From NCBI GenBank assembly GCA_976226885.1, contig OZ320316.1:72168001-72232000 (forward strand): a stretch of 64,000 bases of DNA, read 5' to 3'. This document shows, piece by piece, positions 11,471 to 56,607 of the stretch (the stretch's first letter is position 1; each line of letters begins with the position of its first letter). The DNA is from Iphione sp. A-MEVVRFRX5 (lineage: Eukaryota). Both the position numbers and the translations under genes were made by a program. The notes beneath the pieces are model-generated. The model saw only the letters and a list, made by a program, of their open reading frames with translations, ran no database searches and had not been told where the DNA came from.

Positions 11471-11724
11471 AGTTTCAAACTCCATTATCAGACCTCTTAT
11501 ACTACAGGAAGCTGCAAACACAAGAAATGATTTTATTACGCGAAGTATATGTATGTTTCTGAAAGCCCTTGTGACCAAATTTTAAATTCTGGATTATTTT
11601 TAAAATGATCAGGTTTCGGGGTTTCTTGAAAATCAATGGACTTATTTTTTACTCAAACTTTAATCTCAAATCATATATATGACTCTTGTATAAGAACTGA
11701 ATTCTGGTTCACACATTAATGTAT

Positions 11725-11850
11725 ATATATAGGATATATATATTGTATATATAAATATATGTCATAATCAGCACGATTGTTGTTATATTGTGTCTCCAGG
11801 TAACCATATGCATCATTGTATTCCATAACGACACACCACTTTTTGATTTT
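11725..11850 (+). repeat. Split direct repeat A1
   Basis: 126 bp matching 15684-15809 with 2 mismatches (11812 a/g, 11845 g/t). AT-rich, with TATAAA at 11749-54 and CAG|GTAACC at 11797-11805. Confidence 0.95.
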
Positions 11851-11883
11851 GACGTGTTTAGACATGTTAATCCGTTCAGCACT

Positions 11884-12711
11884 ATGGAAAAGTACTGTAA
11901 GAAGTGCGATGCAAGGCATGTTTCCCCAGTGGGAAAACATTGTAGGAGAGAATCTTCTGATGATGTTGTTGATGTTGAGAAGACTTCTCCTCAAGAGGTA
12001 AATACATCAGATCCAGTCGAGAAAAGATTTCAGAGGATAGAGACGATGTTGGAAGCCCTAGTAGCGATGAAACCAAAGGGTACCAAGGTTGAGAAGACTA
12101 GGGATTCAAGTACTTCCTCAAGTGATTCTGGTGATACCTCAGACTCTGAAGCTGAATCTTCCAAGAGGAAGAAGAGAAGAGGTAAGAAATCAAAGAAATT
12201 AATGATTTCAAAGTATGTGAAGGGAGAGAAAGTGGAGACACATGAAGATCTTGTGGTAGGGTCGATTGGTCTCCTGAAGAAGCTAATTTCTGATGGTGAA
12301 GACGTGGAGGGTTATATTAATCACATAGCCTTTATTGCGGATAGAGCGTCCACCAAGATATACACCAATTCCTCCCTGATTGAATATGACTTAGAGATGA
12401 GGAAGAGGGCGAGAGAAGAGGGGCTACAGAGATTTTGTTACGGTGACACCATACTGGTCCATAGATGTCTAAGCTTGGATGCTACAGTGGACGTAGCAAA
12501 ATTGAGAGAAGCGAAGAAGAAATCCAAGAAGCCAAAGGGTGTCTGCTACAGATATAACAACGTGGGTTGTGATGATGCTTCATGCCGATTCAAACATGTC
12601 TGTGAGTTGTGTTTCAAGGCGGGACACAAGGCGACCGAATGTTACGCAAACAAGACGACAGGTGGTGACTCCAGCAGCAACAAGTCAAAGAATTCGACAA
12701 GGAAGGATTGA
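11884..12711 (+). CDS. gag: Gag-like protein (275 aa from the first in-frame ATG) with N-terminal CCHC-like, C-terminal CCCH and CCHC zinc fingers
   Basis: Open frame 11788-12711, ATG at 11884. Motifs CKKCDARHVSPVGKHC, CYRYNNVGCDDASCRFKH and CELCFKAGHKATEC; central YINHIAFIAD...LIEYDLEMRKR typical of DIRS/Ngaro gag. Confidence 0.85.
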   Translation: MEKYCKKCDARHVSPVGKHCRRESSDDVVDVEKTSPQEVNTSDPVEKRFQRIETMLEALVAMKPKGTKVEKTRDSSTSSSDSGDTSDSEAESSKRKKRRGKKSKKLMISKYVKGEKVETHEDLVVGSIGLLKKLISDGEDVEGYINHIAFIADRASTKIYTNSSLIEYDLEMRKRAREEGLQRFCYGDTILVHRCLSLDATVDVAKLREAKKKSKKPKGVCYRYNNVGCDDASCRFKHVCELCFKAGHKATECYANKTTGGDSSSNKSKNSTRKD

Positions 12712-13149
12712 CTAGAGGAGGAGTTATACGATTCTACATTGGGTTCGATGGAGTGTGAGTGTGATTTCATCAAATTTATTCCCAAGATGAATTATTGGTC
12801 TTTTGAGAGAAAAGACCAATTGTGTGATTTGAATGTCGGTAACCAGGCGGTTGCCAAGCGTGACGTTGTTCATGACGTTGTTGATGACGTAGTGTGTGAC
12901 GTTGTGGACGGTGATAGTGCAGATGCACTCAGTCTCAGGATCCGTGCAGGCATGAGGAGATACGTTCACCGAGACAATGGGAAGGATGGCATTGTTGTGA
13001 GTAGCTATGATGGTGATTTATTGATACCAGTTGATAAAAGTTGCCTGGAGGGCACGTGTGTCTGTGAACACATGATCGGTGGTATCGTTAGCCCTCTACA
13101 TTTGTGCAGATGCTTCTGTTATCACGCTCTTGTCTGGATGATGCTGTGA
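12712..13149 (+). CDS. pol: N-terminal segment of pol, in frame with gag directly after its TGA; shifts into the RT frame near 13110-13145
   Basis: No stop from 12712 to 13146 in the gag frame. It ends in CVCEHMIGGIVSPLHLCRC, which overlaps the RT frame reading SCLDDAVIEELWKGISCGFAIVD. Confidence 0.6.
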   Translation, partial: LEEELYDSTLGSMECECDFIKFIPKMNYWSFERKDQLCDLNVGNQAVAKRDVVHDVVDDVVCDVVDGDSADALSLRIRAGMRRYVHRDNGKDGIVVSSYDGDLLIPVDKSCLEGTCVCEHMIGGIVSPLHLCRCFCYHALVWMML

Positions 13150-14657
13150 TTGAGGAGCTATGGAAAGGAATCAGTTGTGGTTTCGCTATTGTGGATGATG
13201 GTTGCAATACACAATATTTTTGTGAGAACTATAAATCAATTTTCAGTGTTGATTTCAAAAATCAAATGGATTGCAAAGTTAGAGATGAAATGAAATCAGG
13301 CATTATCTCTGAATGCTTGTTTGTCCCTCATTGTGTTAACGCAGTTGGAGGAGTGCCTAAAGGTGATGGGAACCTCAGGCCCATTACTGACTGTTCAATG
13401 CCCCCAGGAAAATCGATCAACAACTATATGAGCAGCACCCAGAAGGAATTTAACTTCAAATCACTGGACGACATGTGCAATGTGTTGTCAGAAGGGGAGT
13501 TTCTTGCCACTTGTGACATTGAAAGCCCCTACAGATCGGTTTTGGTCAAACCTGATCATAGGGAGTTTCAGGTCTTCAGTTGGACCTTTGATGGTGAAAA
13601 GCGCAAATATTACGTTAATAATTCGTTATGTTTCAGTTTGAAGTGTGCTCCGTATATATTTAATAACTTGTCTGAATTAATTGTTTCAGAATTCTCTTAC
13701 AGATGCGGAGGGAGAATAGTGAATTATCTTGATGACTTTGTTGTGATAGGCAGAGATGAGGGGGAATGTACGATGATGCAAGAAATTTTGAAGAATGTGA
13801 TTAATGATATTGGTTTCAAGCTTTCAGAGGAAGAGTGCACCAAGGCATGCAAACAATGTAAATTTCTTGGTATATTCATTGATACTGAAAAGATGGAGTT
13901 GTCTCTTCCATTGGATAAAGTTGAATCAGTGAAGTGTAAGATAAAGGTTTGTTTAAAGAAAAACAAGTTGAGTAAAAGAGAGATTGAGAGCCTGACAGGC
14001 TCCTTGGCACACTATGCCACTGTTGTGAAGGGTGGGAGGACTTACATGCGTAACCTCTATGATCTTGTAAAAAGCATGAAGACTCCACGTTGTAAGGTTA
14101 GATTGGATGACCAAGTACGTGACGACTTGTCTTGGTGGCTTAACTTTATTGATATATTCAATGGGAAAAAGCGTATCATTAATACCAAGATGGTGGAAGG
14201 TGTTTTTACCACAGATTCCTCCATGGTTGGCTTTGGAGGCTGGTATGACAACGACTGGTTTTTTGGTAAATGGTATGACAGTGTTTGGCCATTGGATGTG
14301 TGCAGGCACCATCAGGAGAATCTGCCCAGATGCGATGACTATGATGAGCATATTAATGTATTCGAGTTATGGGCGGTATTGGTGGCCCTAAAGAGGTGGG
14401 GAACTAGGCTGAGAGACAAGTTTATCCTATTGAGAGTTGACAACATATCAGTCATGTACATGCTGAGAACTGGTAGGAGCCACAACAAATCGTGTATGAG
14501 ATGGTTACGCGAAATTTTCTGGTGTTGTGTGTTTCAATATATATTGTTCAGAGTTGATTACATCAACACAGAGAAGAACTACATTGCAGATGCCTTTTCA
14601 AGGGCAATTAATGTCTCAGTGTTCAGTAAAGTGATATGTGATTTATGGTTTAAATGA
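13104..14657 (+). CDS. pol: Reverse transcriptase + RNase H (DIRS/Ngaro pol)
   Basis: 517-aa open frame. RT motifs LRPITDCS, CDIESPYR and YLDD (13725-36); RNase H motifs TTDSS.VGFGG, HINVFELWAV, RVDN, NYIADAFSR. Confidence 0.95.
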   Translation: MQMLLLSRSCLDDAVIEELWKGISCGFAIVDDGCNTQYFCENYKSIFSVDFKNQMDCKVRDEMKSGIISECLFVPHCVNAVGGVPKGDGNLRPITDCSMPPGKSINNYMSSTQKEFNFKSLDDMCNVLSEGEFLATCDIESPYRSVLVKPDHREFQVFSWTFDGEKRKYYVNNSLCFSLKCAPYIFNNLSELIVSEFSYRCGGRIVNYLDDFVVIGRDEGECTMMQEILKNVINDIGFKLSEEECTKACKQCKFLGIFIDTEKMELSLPLDKVESVKCKIKVCLKKNKLSKREIESLTGSLAHYATVVKGGRTYMRNLYDLVKSMKTPRCKVRLDDQVRDDLSWWLNFIDIFNGKKRIINTKMVEGVFTTDSSMVGFGGWYDNDWFFGKWYDSVWPLDVCRHHQENLPRCDDYDEHINVFELWAVLVALKRWGTRLRDKFILLRVDNISVMYMLRTGRSHNKSCMRWLREIFWCCVFQYILFRVDYINTEKNYIADAFSRAINVSVFSKVICDLWFK

Positions 14658-14718
14658 GCTTGCTGCAGTGAGGTATTGTGGTCTCTTTTCAGGAGGTTTC
14701 AGAGCCTTGAAGAAGGAG

Positions 14719-15632
14719 ATGAAGGATCTGAGGGAGGAGGCTCTTTCATTAAACACGAAGAAAACGAGACAGAGACAACTGAAGATTTATGAAAAATTTT
14801 GTGATGAGTTCGGTCTCTCTTATTTCCCATGTTCCAGTGAGCAAGCCTGTATATATTTAACCTACTTGGGCAAGAAGATGTGTTATAATTCTATAAGGAA
14901 TTACTTGTCCGGTCTGATATATTGGTGTAAAGTGCATGGTTCAGTAGTGCCTAGCTATGAAGATTTTGGTTTGTCTCAAATTTTAATGGCCTTAAAGAAG
15001 AAGAGAAGACAGACTTCCTATTCAGGTGTATGCATTTTCTATTCAAGACATGTTTCATATCTCTGATAAATTAAATATGTCCTATTCTGCAGATGAAATG
15101 TTCTGGTTAGCTTGTGTCTTTGCTTTTAGATGCTTATTGCACAAAGAGAATTTTACATCGAATGTTGGTTTGAGATGGAAGGATATTGTATTGAAAGATT
15201 TTGGCATGATTGTAAATTTTTCAAGAGGGAAATGTATTGCTTCCCCTTTAGACAGTTATTCAATTCCAATTTTCTATTGTAATTCTTACCGTATGTGTTT
15301 AGTCACATGGTTAAAGTTGTGGCGTGCTAAGCATTTTCGCAGTGATGATCAATTAATATTCTCTTATTATTCTGGTGGAAGATATAAAGTACTAGAATAT
15401 GGTGACTTTATGCTTAAATTAAAGCAAGTCTGTGATTTTGTGCCTGCAGGCTGTAGAGTTTCCTCACATGGTTTTTAGACGGGGAGGTACTACCTTTTTG
15501 GCTAGTAATGGAGTTAATATGGATTTAATTAAAGACCGAGGTAATTGGAGGTCTTGGTGTGTTCTAAGATATGTTGACCTCAAATTTGACAACCAACTTT
15601 TGCTTGAGAAGTCTATGAGTTTGTGTTTTTAA
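14719..15632 (+). pseudogene. Tyrosine recombinase, two frameshifts (about 14995-15010 and the T-run 15472-76)
   Basis: Three consecutive frames give YNSIRNYLSGL (core-binding), FAFRCLLHKENF (box I, catalytic R appears as H), SHGF/RRGG (HxxR), GNWRS and LRY (catalytic Tyr). Confidence 0.92.
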
Positions 15633-15644
15633 TTGGGTTTGGGA

Positions 15645-15684
15645 ATGCTTGTATTCCCATTCCTTGTTGTGTCCATTTTGTAGA
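15645..15684 (+). repeat. Split direct repeat B1
   Basis: ATGCTTGTATTCCCATTCCTTGTTGTGTCCATTTTGTAGA, identical to 15834-15873. Confidence 0.95.
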
Positions 15685-15809
15685 TATATAGGATATATAT
15701 ATTGTATATATAAATATATGTCATAATCAGCACGATTGTTGTTATATTGTGTCTCCAGGTAACCATATGCGTCATTGTATTCCATAACGACACACCACTT
15801 TTTTATTTT
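15684..15809 (+). repeat. Split direct repeat A2
   Basis: Copy of A1 (124/126 identical) directly abutting B1. Confidence 0.95.
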
Positions 15810-15833
15810 ATCTTGTTCTTATGAATAAAGGTC

Positions 15834-15873
15834 ATGCTTGTATTCCCATTCCTTGTTGTGTCCATTTTGTAGA
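15834..15873 (+). repeat. Split direct repeat B2 (3' terminus), preceded by AATAAA at 15824-29
   Basis: Identical to B1; the upstream AATAAA is a candidate polyadenylation signal. Confidence 0.93.
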
Positions 15874-15892
15874 CATATATATATATATATAT

Positions 15893-16341
15893 GACTGATT
15901 CTACCAATTTTTGTACCAGTCTCGGAGATTACACTTGAAAAAAACATACAGAAACATTAGGATCATAATATGTTAATGTCATGTGTTAATATACTTTATC
16001 TTAACGTAAAATCTTGCCTTAATACCCATGTGTTCCTGAATATATATCCAGAAAATTATCCCTAAATTCCAATTATTGTTGCATGTAGAGCTTTAAGAAT
16101 CTAGGTATGTAAATATTGGTGTAATCTCTGAGATGGAACTGAAAAAGCCTTCATTTCCCCTTAATATCTGCAAAATTAGGGAGATTACACATACAAATAA
16201 AATATCAAAGCATAGCACTTGACTTTAAGTCCATCACAGAAACAAAAAATGTGAATAGAATTGCATATGTAATGAAATATTGATTGTAAAGGCATGACTT
16301 TGTAATCTCCGATACTGGTACAAAAATTGGTAGAATCAGCC
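15893..16341. mobile_element. 449-bp MITE with 41-bp TIRs embedded in a (TA)n microsatellite
   Basis: TIRs 15893-15933 and 16301-16341 match 39/41; (AT)n runs on both sides (15875-92, 16342-59); GAGATTACA(C) occurs four times in both orientations. Confidence 0.9.
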
Positions 16342-16829
16342 ATATATATATATATATATTCCCTTATCCATTGAATACATGCCAGATGGTATTAAGTGTG
16401 CATAAAAAAATCTTGGGTTTCAAAATTCTGGCTTTCTTGCCTTGTTCTTGTATCTGATCTTCGTCCAGAATGGAATTGAAATTTTTATGACTAGAAAAAA
16501 AATATTTTTGAATTGGCCCACTTCTACTAAGAGTGTTTCGCTCTTTTTGTCATAAATGGAAGAGTTTATAACTTCAGCTATTTCTTGAAGCATTATGTAC
16601 ACACTCTTTTGCCCATCATTAACTTTTATTTGGCAGCTTGTGCATGTACTTTTTTTAAAAATAAGTACCTAAATCAAAAATATATGCTTTTCAAGTTTAC
16701 AGGTGGAACTCTTGTCACCAAAGGTGCCGTGATGTATATGTATATATCCCAGAAAAACAATTCAAGTTATTGGTTCGATATTTCAGTTCAAAAACAGACA
16801 TTATTAATAATTTCATTTTCTTAGACAAA

Positions 16830-48794: not shown

Positions 48795-49274
48795 GGGCTA
48801 TTTCTATGTGTACAGGCGCTAGACTTCAGGCTCTGTGTCTGGAGGCATCAGTGGATGGAAAATGGGAAATGTTCTTTTTTTCCACACCACAAATGCCCAC
48901 GGATCATTAGGATACTGAAATGGTTGGTTAAACAAGGTAGAGCCCTGTCTGATATATGTTAGATGATGTGATATATTTTATAATTTGCCTAAAATTTGCA
49001 TAAAAACTCACCCTTTACACAGATTTGGGCAGAATTCCTTCCAATCAGCACAAAAAAACAACTTGCCAGTTAAACAGATTCAGACATAATTCTGATCCAC
49101 ATAAAAAAACTTCACCATTTACACAGATATTGGCAGAATTCCTTCTAATCAGCACAAAAAAATAACTTGCCACTTACACAGATTTTCACAGAATTCTTTC
49201 TGATCAGCAAACTCTGTGCGCGTATCTGTGTGTGTAAATGAACTAGACAGCTACCAATACACATGGAACTCCCC
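48795..49274 (+). mobile_element. Degenerate PIF/Harbinger-like MITE with an about 52-bp tandem array
   Basis: Ends GGGCTATTTCTATGTGTA / reverse complement GGGGAGTTCCATGTGTA. Shares atatgttagatg.tgtga.atat.tt...aatttgc with 41335-41370. Array of tttacacagat..ggcagaattccttc.aatcagcac at 49013-49210. TSD not clear. Confidence 0.6.
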
Positions 49275-49432: not shown

Positions 49433-52007
49433 CGGCCCCCCCCTACCGGACCCCTCGTGTCCGGAATATCATCATAACCGGAGGGTATTCGAATTACCAA
49501 TTGTTTTTCTCTAAAAATTATACTATTTAACTGGACCCTGCTTTTCCGTATTCGGATGAAATTTAGCTACATTTTTTAGCATTTAACATAGGAAATACAT
49601 TCAGTTAACCGGAGGCGTGTTGTCAAAGGAGGCTTATCGTGTCTGCGTGACAAGGGCGAGTGAACGACAATGGATAGGGGTTTGTTTGAAGTACATAGCG
49701 TCAGTCGCTCAAAAAACACAGGACATCCATTGATGCAGTGAGTGACTCCCACAACAAAGGGTTTACAGCCTGGGGACTTCTAACGCCTTATCGCACCTAG
49801 GTGAGGGGAGGCGTTAGGGGAACAAAGAATTTACAGCCTGTGGCCCTGAGGTACCCCCCAGGTTATTGTCTGTGCACGGTAGAGGTGTGCTGGCCGGGTC
49901 GTCCTCCAGGGCTGAGAATTCAGCTTAAAAGCAGGAGGGTAGGAGCGAACAGTATCCATTCCCTCTGGAACCACCAAGATGTCTCAACCACCCACCAAGC
50001 GTCGTCGAGTCTGCATCACCAACGCCCCAAAAAAGGAACTATGTCTGCACAAGGCCAAACACCCTGGAACGTCCCAGGCTGACATGATTGCGAAATTCTC
50101 CTCCAAGTGGGGAGTTGAAGTGCCACGATCCACTATATCAGACATTTTGAAAAAGTCTGCACAATGGATCGGCATGTCGGCTGAAGAGGGGAGCCTATGC
50201 CGCCAATGATGCCCACTGCAGTCCAAGCTTGAGGCGGCCCTGATGATATGGTTTGCCAATATGCGGTCAAGAGGCGCCATCCTATGAGACGACATGATGA
50301 TTCGTCAAGCCCAGAAGTTGGGGGTACAGATTGGCATCACGGGATTCCAGTACAGCAAGGGCTGGCTTGGGCGCCTCAAGATTCGCAACAATATTCGATG
50401 CTACAAGCAGCACAGCAAGTCTGCTTCAGCAGATATGGCAGTCATCAAGGATGGGCGCTCCTCCCTCCAGGAGGAGCTCTAGGGCTTCGATCCAGAAGAC
50501 GTCTACAATATCGACGAGATGGGGCTGTTTTACCATTTAAAGCCCACTGCCACCTTGTCGACTGGTCCAGTCAAGGGTGAGAACAGGAACAAAGATCAAA
50601 TTACAGTCGTCCTTGCATGCAACACCACTTGATCAAACAAGTTGAGGCCCTTGGTCATTGGGAAATCAGCAAAGCCCAGGTGCTTCTCCATGGGGTTTGA
50701 CCATGGCATGTATGTCCACTACCACCATAACCAGAAGGCCTGGATGACGTCTAAGGTCTGGGTGGACTACCTGCAAATACTCAACGATCGGGCGAAGGGT
50801 CAGGGCTGGCGGTACCTGCTGCTGGTAGACAATGCGGGACCTCATAAGACAACCGAGAGGTTCTCCCACCTGAGCCTCAAATTCCTGCCTCCCAATACCA
50901 CAGCACACATCCAGCCCTTAGATGCAGGAATTATTGCCTCATTCAAGACACAATACAGAAAGAGGCTGGTTGAGCACTTTTTGGGATGTGTGGAGAGAGA
51001 TGAGCCCATGGTGACTGACATCAGGAAAGCTATCCTGATGCTCCATGAAGCCTGGGCCTCAGTGACATCGACGACCATCAAAAAGTGCTGGGATCACGTC
51101 AACATCCTCCCCGGCCCCAACACCACCACCAGCACCACCAGCCCCAACACCACCACCAGCACCACCACGACCACCCTCACCAATGAAGATCCATCTGATG
51201 ATGAGGAGGATCTCCCATTATCAGAGTTGCAAGCTCTCCTCCAGGCAATGCCAAGTGAAGATGGGCAGGCAGTGATGTCTGCCCAGGAATACGCACAGGT
51301 GGATCAGGAGGCTGAGACAAATAGGGAATTGACTGATGAGGCCATCATCAGTCTTGTCGGTCAGCCTGAGGTGCCTGACTCACAAACTGGTGAGAATGAG
51401 GATGAGGCAGAGTATGTCCCCCCACCACCACTCACCTTCAAGGAAGTATCCAGATCAGTGGACACACTGGTCAGATTATGTGAGGAGCGCAAGAATATTG
51501 CTCGAGTTGAATTCCTCAGGGGACTGCTGCAAGATGCTCAGACAACTCATAAGAGTAAAAGACAGACCCTCATCAAAGACTTTTTCAAGGTTTAAAGAAA
51601 TTGTTTTGTGAAATTGTTTTTTTTACTTTTTTTCTCACCATTGTGATTTTTTTTTGTTATTGATAAATTATGTATGAGTTTGACATATGTTTTCTGTAAT
51701 AAATACCCTTATTCCTAACGGAAATTGAATGTGTCATTATTTTCCAGAAATTCATAAAAATCCTTGAAATGGTAATATTTGGTCCATACTTTACTATTAT
51801 GACAGTTTTCCTCACCAGGACACACATGGGAAGCCTTTGAAACCAATACAGATCGATAATCAATAGTATCCATTAGGTTCCCATACTTTACCATTATGAC
51901 CGTTTTCCCCACCAGGAGACGCATGGTGCTTGGGTCGCCACTCCGGACCCCTCCCAACCGGACAATTTTTCGCATTCCGGTACCCTCCGGTTAAGGCGGG
52001 CCAACGG
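49433..52007 (+). mobile_element. pogo/Tigger DNA transposon (about 2.6 kb), left TIR degraded
   Basis: Right end ...TCCGGTTAAGGCGGGCCAACGG|TA; left TA|CGGCCCCCCCTACCGGA; repeated AACCGGA subterminal motifs; encloses a transposase. Also a 46-bp direct repeat near 51784 and 51880. Confidence 0.8.
49979..51595 (+). pseudogene. pogo/Tigger (CENP-B-like, DDE_1) transposase, 538 codons, four in-frame stops
   Basis: One frame throughout: N-terminal HTH (KKELC...SQAD....W...V.RSTISDILK), second HTH (EAAL.IWF...FQYSKGWL.R.K.R), triad YNIDEMG / LLVDNAGPH / IQPLDAGII with 30 residues between D2 and D3. Stops at 50207, 50285, 50480 and 50630. Confidence 0.93.
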
Positions 52008-53789: not shown

Positions 53790-54176
53790 TGACACATCAC
53801 CGTACTATCACATAGCCATGCCCACCCATCACAATGTGACAGTCATACTTTCACTTCAGTCACATACAATGTTCAAATGTTTTTAAAAAAAGGTTTCTAG
53901 TCATAGTATCAGTGTACTGCACTTTCTCATATACTTTGAAAATAAATATATGTTCATAATGGATATAGTGTCTATACATTAACATAACCACATATTGATA
54001 TGACAGTCATAATTATAATACGGTCACATGCAAGCGAATGTGTCACTCAAAAGTCGTCTGCATGGATTGGTTATACAAGTCACGTGACAAAATAGCATAG
54101 CATCATTAGCTATGGAACACTTTGATTGACAGATATCATGACCATAAGAAATGTCCTATTATGCAGTGATGTGTCA
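53790..54176 (+). mobile_element. 387-bp MITE with TGACACATCAC TIRs and a 2-bp (AT) TSD, inserted in the RTE
   Basis: Perfect 11-bp TIRs; AT at 53788-89 and 54177-78; excision restores the RTE frame (DNG-I-FSESFAITN). Confidence 0.85.
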
Positions 54177-54864
54177 ATTCTCTGAGTCATTTGCCATCAC
54201 AAATAGCAAGGATGTGTCCTTGTGTCCTTGCATCAACTTTATTCAGCATCCTGTTTGCTGCAATGCTTCATGACACATTCAAATCAGAAGACCCAGGCTT
54301 TAGAGGTGATTCAGAACTACTGAAAAGCTCCGCAACCTCACTAACTTGAGAGCCAAGACAAAACCCAGCACTACCATCCTCAGAAACTTCTTGTTTGCTG
54401 ATAAGTGTACCCTGAATGCAAGAAATGAAAGAGATATGCAACACAGTATGGATCTTTTCTCTGCTACTTGCCTTAACATTGGACTTACTATCATTAGCAA
54501 GTATACCAAGCAGTCATCCTTACCACCTTACTCTTCACTGTAGAAACTTGGACCATATATCAGCATCATGCCAAGAAATTGAACTGCTTTCACCTCTCTT
54601 GCCTTAGGAAGCTCCTCAACATCAAATGGTAAGACAAGATCCCAGACATAGAAGTGTTAAGCAGAACAGGACTTCCCAATATTTTCACTCTTCTCAAGAA
54701 AACTCAGCTATGCTAGGCTGGTCATGTCCATCAAATGCCATACACAAGACTCCCTAAAATACTACTTTATGGGGAGCAGCCCACTGGAGCAAGAACATGC
54801 AGTGGTCAAAATAAATATTACAAAGACTCCCTCAAAGCCTCCCTCAAAGACTTCAATATTGATT

Positions 54865-55326
54865 CAGTCAATACTCAAAACCAAACAATCACCGTTTCAG
54901 GTTATTTCGTTTGTATTTTGGTTCATTTGGATTTCAAATTGTGCCCTAATGCCACTTTTCAACATACTTTTCATATTCTTAAGCCAAAAATCAGCAAAAT
55001 TTAGGCAAATTCATCTGAAAATTGGCAAAATTCAGCCAAATTCATCCGAAAATCAGCAAAACTCGGTCAAATCGTCCAAAAATCGGCAAAATTTATGCAC
55101 ATTTGTCCAAAAATCATCAAAAACTAGCCTAATTCATTTTTAATAAGCCAGATTTGGCTAAAAATTGGCAAAAATCGACCAAAATTGGCTGGAAATTGTT
55201 TGGATTTCAGATTGAAATGTTTGGTTATATGAGTATTTTAACAGAGAAAAATAATTGGTGCCAGCCAATTCTGTTCAGATTTGGGAAAAATCAGTTTTTG
55301 AGTGTTCGGTTTTGGAGTAACCTTTG
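54865..55326 (+). mobile_element. 462-bp Tc1/mariner-type MITE with a phased A-tract array, inserted in the RTE
   Basis: Imperfect TIRs CAGTCAATACTCAAAACCAAAC / reverse complement CAAAGGTTACTCCAAAACCGAAC; TA at the right (55327-28), TT at the left; excision restores NID-I-SNWES. Confidence 0.7.
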
Positions 55327-56225
55327 TATATCAAACTGGGAATCCAACACTACACGTCATACCAAGTGGAGAAGCACTATCTACAAAGGAGCAGAGAACT
55401 TTTAGAAGCATAGGATGTCCCTTGCACAGTCTTCAAGAGCTGCTTGGAAATTCTGCCAAAGTCAAAGAGACAGACTCCCCTTCATAAAATGTTCTCACTG
55501 TGACAGGTCATTTCATGCATGAATTGGCCTCACAAATCACATGAGCATTTACAAAGGATGAGGAAAAAGAAACTAAGAGCATGGTCATCTTTGATGATGA
55601 AGGACAAAGAAGAGGCAAGGATCACAGTTTTCATCGACAATATCCTATCCCTATCCTAAGTAAGTCCTCTAATTTTCATCATATAATACAGTTTCACATT
55701 CACTCCTTGGCATCTGGAGACCCTGTAACCATATTACCACGTTATCTGGACTCTAATGGGAGGACGAACCCATTTTCACTATAAATCGTACTATTTAACT
55801 GTATCCTCATATGCATAACTGGGGTGTATTTATCGACTTTAGAGACAATTTATGGTATAATTGATGTTGTTTTAGCCATACTAGGAAAATATAAAGCAAA
55901 CCCCTGAAATAGTAAAGCAATTAATGTTGTTTTAACCAGATGAGGTATAAGCAAGGAACCACCAGGCACTCCGGCTTTCATAGTATCCCTTATGCAGTTA
56001 AAACAACTTTGATTACTTTACTATAGGATTTTACAGGGCATTATGTATACTATTATGCACATTTTCCCTGCCAGGAGACGCAGGTGTGCGGATACTAGAT
56101 AATATGGATTGGACATCCATATTATCTGGTATCTGGACCATTTCACTGGAAACAATAGCACTCCAGTTAACACGGTCTGACTGTATATCATTTATATGCT
56201 GAAAATACATTTGAGTCTGATCAGT

Positions 56226-56474
56226 TGAGACATCTCTGCATGATAGGAGGACATGTTTTAAAGTCATAATATCTGTCAATCAAAGTGTTCCATAGCCAAT
56301 AATGTTATGCTATTTTGTCACATGACTTGTGTAACCAATCCATGCAGATGACATTTCAGTGACACTGTCACTCATGCATGACCATATTAGAATTATGACT
56401 GTAACATGTCATTATGTGGTTATGTAAATCTATGGATATATATCTATTGAGAACATGGTGAAGTATCTATATTT
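56226..56474 (-). mobile_element. Second, inverted copy of the 53790-54176 MITE, truncated by the gap
   Basis: The reverse complement aligns with about 53940-54176 (e.g. gctatggaacactttgattgacagatat.atgac, catggattggtta.acaagtca.gtgacaaaatagcata). Confidence 0.85.
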
Positions 56475-56607
56475 NNNNNNNNNNNNNNNNNNNNNNNNNN
56501 NNNNNNNNNNNNNNNNNNNNNNNNNNNNNNNNNNNNNNNNNNNNNNNNNNNNNNNNNNNNNNNNNNNNNNNNNNNNNNNNNNNNNNNNNNNNNNNNNNNN
56601 NNNNNNN
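56475..56607. other. Assembly gap (133 N)
   Basis: Run of N. Confidence 1.

Follow-up and report, generated by a model that had tools for sequence, protein, structure and literature searches.

The window, a 64-kb stretch of DNA, harbors a 4.2-kb tyrosine-recombinase (YR) retrotransposon of the Ngaro type with split repeats in the order A...BAB. Its features are as follows.

11720-11858, plus strand: split direct repeat A1, the 5' end of the element (139 nt, 96% identical to 15679-15817)
11884-12711, plus strand: gag-like ORF1 from the ATG at 11884, 275 aa and closed by TGA (316 relatives at E<=0.001)
12601-12642, plus strand: CCHC zinc knuckle CX2CX4HX4C, residues 240-253 (pattern in 134 of 150 relatives examined)
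12709-12715, plus strand: UGA-CUAG, candidate readthrough signal, read directly (the 7-mer is also at the stop of the relative L001)
12712-13122, plus strand: in-frame N-terminal extension of pol, an acidic linker and then a CxxGxCxC..IGG..L.CR motif from 13042 (motif, tblastn)
12721-12830, plus strand: predicted RNA structure, separated from the stop by a 9-nt spacer: a 9-bp basal stem pairing 12721-29 to 12822-30, inside which lies an 11-bp hairpin (12794-12820)
12838-12855, plus strand: second predicted hairpin, 7 bp (pair probabilities 0.98-1.0)
13092-14657, plus strand: RT/RNase H ORF (Pfam RVT_1, E 9e-14; weak RT_RNaseH)
13113-13122, plus strand: frame break in pol, a lesion or assembly error, position approximate (tblastn frame switch)
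14635-15632, plus strand: tyrosine recombinase ORF3 in three frames (tblastn with the relative P0272; weak Phage_int_SAM_1)
15645-15879, plus strand: 3' repeats B1 (15645-15690), A2 (15679-15817) and B2 (15834-15879)

By structure, in an analysis whose RT tree contained no named Ngaro references, the element belongs to the Ngaro superfamily of the DIRS order: the gag-like ORF1, RT/RNase H and a tyrosine recombinase lie on one strand between the split direct repeats A1...B1A2B2, the internal repeats follow the recombinase, and a methyltransferase domain is absent after RNase H. The recombinase frame is broken and its Pfam match falls below the cut-off; what we take to be the HxxR and Tyr motifs of the enzyme are visible across the ORF3 breaks. 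Since A1 and A2 have a single mismatch across a core of ~120 nt, the insertion is young, and with three frame breaks it is also dead. The layout A1-[gag, RT/RH, YR]-B1A2B2 defines Ngaro in the available text of PMC8547959, and the lack of a methyltransferase sets Ngaro apart from PAT and DIRS1 in that of PMC4157794, which also cautions that structure alone can mislead in classifying such elements. Like the window element, described Ngaros lack a methyltransferase, a protease and a DDE integrase (PMC8547959, PMC4157794 and PMC3783388, in the portions available). No sister copies were found elsewhere within the 64-kb window, and no relatives among plasmid or phage records; protein-cluster matches were to eukaryotic clusters for Gag and to RVT_1 clusters for Pol, the commonest named phyla including Mollusca.

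Splice-like signals, unscored matches to consensus motifs, are found at CAG/GTAACC (11799/11800) in repeat A, at a pyrimidine-rich AG (11860-61) before gag, and at a further pyrimidine-rich AG (14691-92) just before the likely YR ATG (14719); the related locus L002, described below, has a similar TTTCAG near 2683-2688. The YR may be made from spliced RNA. Elsewhere in the window, a MITE-like element with 59-nt inverted arms (97%) at 15875-16359 abuts the right end of the retrotransposon in a TA run, a 320-codon ORF at 50633-51595 carries a DDE_1 transposase domain (E 7e-33), 53998-56407 holds a pair of 165-nt inverted repeats (83%) with 2080 nt between them, 49002-49197 holds two copies of a 92-nt direct repeat, and 56475-56607 is an assembly gap of 133 N.

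The original prediction was that gag ends at a candidate leaky stop codon in frame with pol. Positions 12703-12717 do read AAG GAT TGA CTA GAG, with TGA at 12709-12711 and CTAG at 12712-12715, and the same frame stays open for the 145 codons claimed (12712-13149), while the other two frames contain 6 and 14 stops over 12712-13010. From local composition, the probability of TGACTAG given a stop is 0.0011, and among 160 stop-like triplets in the gag-pol region only one, the gag stop itself, has this context. The UGA is thus followed by CUA(G) and is in frame with a downstream functional domain, as at readthrough sites. That UGA-CUAG is a known leaky context agrees with the available text of PMC4132726, in which it supports efficient readthrough in reporters and UGA-CUA alone gives 1.5%.

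A search with the Gag sequence read through the stop as X returned 316 proteins at E<=0.001, of which the best 150 were examined; ORF1 itself matched no Pfam family at the cut-off. The knuckle was matched in 134 of these 150 and not in 16, and in 130 of the 134 knuckle-bearing Gags the protein ends 2-32 residues (median 10) past it. The window stop lies 22 residues past the knuckle, where the prediction had expected a Gag to end. Of the other four, two have short extensions, one is an unrelated multi-finger protein and one is P0232. Judged by the sequences of these relatives, the TGA is the normal, family-wide end of Gag. Of the 130 Gags, 85 have Lys as their final residue (18% background in tails; p 3e-32), an excess that suggests selection on the bases preceding the stop and that fits a known 5' stimulator, as adenines 5' of the stop stimulate readthrough according to the available text of PMC3159437. 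The window Gag itself ends in Lys-Asp rather than Lys, and terminal Lys is absent at all three junctions for which DNA is at hand (D, T and H in the window, L001 and L002).

A search of 974-2780-aa proteins for a full Gag-Pol fusion found none, weak evidence when taken alone, its one match being a Pol-YR fusion; a word-based Gag search also gave one match. P0272 carries RT/RNase H and a tyrosine recombinase in a single 1025-aa ORF, and P0232 is a decayed relative in which Gag continues stop-free into the pol Cys motif, with KKDLS at the junction. In a protein-only overlap test, Gag P0002 and Pol P0013, possibly from one contig, allow just a trivial 2-codon overlap, which was also obtained for 15348 of 15600 pairs and renders the test uninformative; knuckle signatures in the other frames numbered 0 and 2 of 120.

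On the pol side, 232 relatives were retrieved at E<=1e-20 and the best 120 examined. None of the 120 has a knuckle upstream. These pols have an acidic extension, with a CxxGxCxC motif ahead of RT in 83 of them. The window has this motif at codon 111 past the stop, in the gag frame; tblastn with P0003, P0004 and P0013 likewise gave matches in the post-stop gag frame, and the composition of the gag frame fits the linkers of relatives best. On these comparisons, the post-stop frame is the genuine start of pol. The claim that this frame leads into RT therefore stands insofar as the stop is in frame with the true start of pol, but in this copy it does not continue into RT, as tblastn detects a switch of frame at about 13113-13122. 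By pattern, 68 of the 120 pol relatives are continuous across this point, and the window has no slippery heptamer here, so that the break is best regarded as a lesion of the window copy; a programmed frameshift at 13113-13122 was rejected on the same two grounds. The window pol ends 17 aa past its last RNase H motif, and relatives with the motif (106 of 120) end 13-77 aa past it.

A single scan of genome contigs identified three loci, one of which, L003, was dropped as a weak 82-residue match (E 7e-5). The other two, L001 (JAAEPZ010000102.1) and L002 (QNER01001203.1), each encode RT/RNase H with recombinase-like sequence after it; both are short contigs assigned to bacterial bins, and are probably stray eukaryotic elements present through binning contamination. 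The nearest in-frame stop before the RT YLDD motif is acc-TGA-CTAG in L001, 296 codons upstream, and cat-TGA-CTCC in L002, 252 codons upstream. The chance of TGA-CT at both is 0.034 x 0.016, or ~5e-4, and that of the full 7-mer in L001 is 0.0013. The gag frame is open for 611 codons in L001 and 571 in L002, and the first in-frame Met falls at codon 211 and 223, respectively, past conserved RT motifs at 175 and at 135/189, so that pol in these two elements cannot start at its own AUG. In the window copy, an in-frame AUG lies 13 codons past the stop. Pairwise pol identity is 32% for the window and L001, 25% for the window and L002, and 27% for the remaining pair, and an approximate tree with L002 as its root places L001 within the family.

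The stop and its context are therefore conserved at both informative loci (TGA-CTAG and TGA-CTCC), a small sample in which no gag is seen in L001, whose contig has just 15 codons between its edge and the stop. Two outcomes had been named as speaking against the prediction, a sense codon at this position and a pol in another frame with its own start; the two loci instead carry an in-frame UGA-CU. In L002 the stop follows, without a change of frame, an ORF of 294 codons that has a Cys/His cluster at its end and was unrecognized by the Gag HMM and Pfam. The L002 pol itself ends TGA-CTG, and TGA-CT is thus not exclusive to the gag-pol junction. The idea that TGA is recoded as a sense codon in the bins of L001 and L002 was discarded, as pol ORFs of 611 and 571 codons without an internal TGA would speak against it.

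We also folded the RNA downstream of the stop, as the original prediction had proposed. In the window, the 150 nt past the stop fold with z -3.0, a value as low as which was reached by 0 of 200 shuffles and which is the lowest of 73 windows on a 50-nt grid anchored at the stop and covering the whole element. This much favors a stimulatory structure, but the first 100 nt are unremarkable (z +0.2), and the L002 junction has no significant structure (z +0.9 to -1.6). The predicted basal stem has pair probabilities of 0.70-0.79, with four of nine pairs G-U, and encloses 92 nt. In L001 the first 150 nt fold weakly (z -1.1), and the lowest z among 19 windows (-4.5) falls at 150-299. A 3' stimulator is hence predicted in the window, weak or displaced in L001 and absent in L002, among sequences with no alignable homologues for covariation, and the case for a downstream stimulatory structure is suggestive. 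The predicted spacer and stem resemble those of the alphavirus VEEV, for which the available text of PMC3159437 describes a spacer of 8-9 nt, a stem of 11-12 bp and a loop of 101 nt. L001 additionally contains six copies of a 5-bp hairpin at 113-256, 60-200 nt past TGA-CTAG; most are spaced at 24 nt, all share one codon phase, and their stems vary yet stay paired (GGGTC/GACCC, GAGTC/GACTC, GGCTC/GAGCC). Rfam scans returned nothing meaningful near the junction or in the window element, L001 or L002.

Several known systems resemble this junction in part. In Moloney murine leukemia virus, gag and pol likewise share one frame with one stop between them and structured RNA ~8-9 nt downstream, and readthrough sets how much Gag is made relative to Gag-Pol (PMC3159437 and PMC2194720, available text). 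MuLV differs in using UAG with a compact pseudoknot and in cleaving Gag-Pol with a protease, whereas the window element has UGA-CUAG, a predicted long-range stem and no protease. The UGA-CUA(G) context is shared with the alphavirus nsP3/nsP4 opal codon and with mammalian AQP4, OPRL1, OPRK1 and MAPK10; in alphaviruses the polymerase is also reached by readthrough, and in the source text available a stem enclosing ~100 nt is predicted after an 8-12-nt spacer. Those signals are reporter-tested and conserved, whereas the window stem is a single-sequence prediction with four G-U pairs that is not seen in L002. The Candida albicans retrotransposon Tca2 also has an in-frame UGA between gag and pol, but is an integrase-type LTR element whose junction, when placed by itself in S. 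cerevisiae reporters, produced no readthrough, according to the portion of PMC2194720 available.

Within the superfamily itself, the described Xenopus Ngaros overlap their ORFs and the amphioxus Ngaro uses alternate frames (PMC2632668, available text), whereas gag and pol of the window element share a frame across UGA-CUAG; the accessible part of PMC3266345 states that Ngaros are usually without ORF overlaps, unlike the Xenopus and amphioxus descriptions. The prediction had noted no earlier description of such readthrough for DIRS/Ngaro elements, and the full-text literature searched, which did not extend to two founding Ngaro papers (Goodwin & Poulter 2004 and Poulter & Butler 2015) that could already note an in-frame stop, yielded none for Ngaro, DIRS or YR retrotransposons. 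The word "readthrough" is absent from the available text of PMC3783388, PMC8547959, PMC6681497, PMC9210276, PMC3266345 and PMC5890265; the accessible portions of PMC4157794 contain neither "stop" nor "frame", those of a 2026 readthrough review (PMC13517186) neither "retrotranspos" nor "DIRS", and those of PMC7192593, on DIRS-1, give no mechanism for pol translation. In the available text of a bioRxiv preprint that mentions Ngaro (2021.04.08.439009), "readthrough" refers to transcription. The literature searched gave no account of how Ngaro pol is translated.

Based on the data presented above, we consider it likely, from the three junctions, that programmed readthrough of the UGA produces an uncleaved Gag-Pol protein. 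This is the simplest account because the UGA-CU is in frame, two relatives have no usable pol AUG, and the end of Gag is family-wide. One long element RNA would be translated, with most ribosomes halting at the gag UGA and freeing Gag, and a minority inserting an amino acid at the UGA, with help from the CUAG context and, probably, from the RNA structure 9 nt on. By analogy with known signals, this minority may amount to a few percent. These ribosomes would continue via the acidic linker into RT/RNase H, yielding, in a low and fixed proportion to Gag, a Gag-linker-RT-RNase H fusion that would tether RT in the particle, with the long linker possibly acting as the tether; the fusion would presumably be packaged. 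YR retrotransposons are without a protease in the available text of PMC3783388, and with none encoded the fusion would stay uncleaved.

Alternatively, pol could be translated separately, by reinitiation or from an internal promoter with a downstream start, the in-frame layout being incidental. The AUG 13 codons past the window stop would suit such a scheme, and Tca2 offers a precedent in having a promoter at its junction together with its lack of reporter readthrough (PMC2194720, available text). We regard separate translation as unlikely, as L001 and L002 are without an in-frame AUG for >200 codons and the recurrence of UGA-CU would be left unexplained.

It could also be that splicing removes the stop, with CTAG, which includes a YAG, acting as a 3' splice site joined to an upstream donor to form a pol mRNA. 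The upstream sequence is pyrimidine at 14 of 22 nt in L001 and L002, and splice-like signals appear to occur elsewhere in the element (11800, 11861, 14692), but only 7 of 22 upstream nt are pyrimidine in the window, and L002 has CTCC in place of CTAG. Moreover, splicing would not need the stop to be flanked by a long open frame on either side. These points make splicing quite unlikely.

An overlapping stop-start, in which AAA-UGA-CU supplies AUG-ACU in the -1 frame and the in-frame appearance of the window is due to decay, was considered as well. The terminal Lys of 85 of 130 Gags would supply the A-UGA, and M-T-(A-starting codon) opens nine of 120 pols where 2.1 would be expected (p 4e-4); the P0232 junction KKDLS is not one base from TGA and could stem from an indel. 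However, no AUG overlaps the stop at any of the three DNA junctions, the -1 frame of the window closes after 16 codons, and the gag frames of L001 and L002 are open for the 611 and 571 codons given above. The other 111 pols start otherwise, and the nine are scattered on the tree. As an explanation of the junction a stop-start is very unlikely, and it may operate in a minority of relatives. The nine M-T-(A..) pols are P0028, P0035, P0039, P0063, P0077, P0086, P0087, P0107 and P0115, of which P0086, P0087 and P0115 represent large clusters (87, 38 and 15 members).

The caveat attached to the original prediction, that a nonsense mutation created the TGA within one continuous Gag-Pol ORF, is largely refuted and highly improbable: the window copy is decayed, with three frame breaks, and P0232 runs stop-free from Gag into the pol Cys motif, but the 926 codons of gag, linker and pol include no further nonsense codon, this position is where 130 of 134 Gag relatives terminate, 0 of 120 pols have an upstream knuckle, and L001 and L002 have the same stop. 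Decoding of the UGA as selenocysteine, as proposed for Naiad Penelope-like elements, has a precedent in clam and spider retroelements (PMC8557442, available text), but Rfam scans of the element, L001 and L002, less sensitive than dedicated tools, gave no SECIS match at E<=5, the junction position is not a conserved Cys, and Gag relatives end here, which leaves it scarcely credible.

Returning to programmed readthrough, the window element appears to represent a known kind of recoding in a lineage for which we found no report; the junction is a conserved feature, most likely a site of UGA-CUAG Gag-Pol readthrough. We give roughly even chances to a broader proposition, namely that a deep, widespread Ngaro-type branch (pol identity down to 25%) makes its RT as an uncleaved Gag-Pol via alphavirus-style UGA-CUAG readthrough with an RNA stimulator, that the DIRS order would thereby gain its first defined recoding mechanism, that animal genomes hold a large unannotated pool of readthrough signals, and that some lineages possibly switch AAA-UGA-CU to an AUGA stop-start.

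The literature searched offers no explanation of RT translation in DIRS-order elements or of the way their Gag:Pol ratio is set, and the present analysis supplies a precise, testable hypothesis for the translation of RT. Should it prove correct, Gag-Pol readthrough would have originated or survived in one more lineage of retroelements, through a signal of the type used by alphaviruses and mammalian genes. Pol annotations that start at an internal Met would then be truncated, and repeat curation would mistake in-frame TGAs at the end of gag for decay. Hundreds of divergent families would, in turn, constitute a natural library of readthrough contexts.
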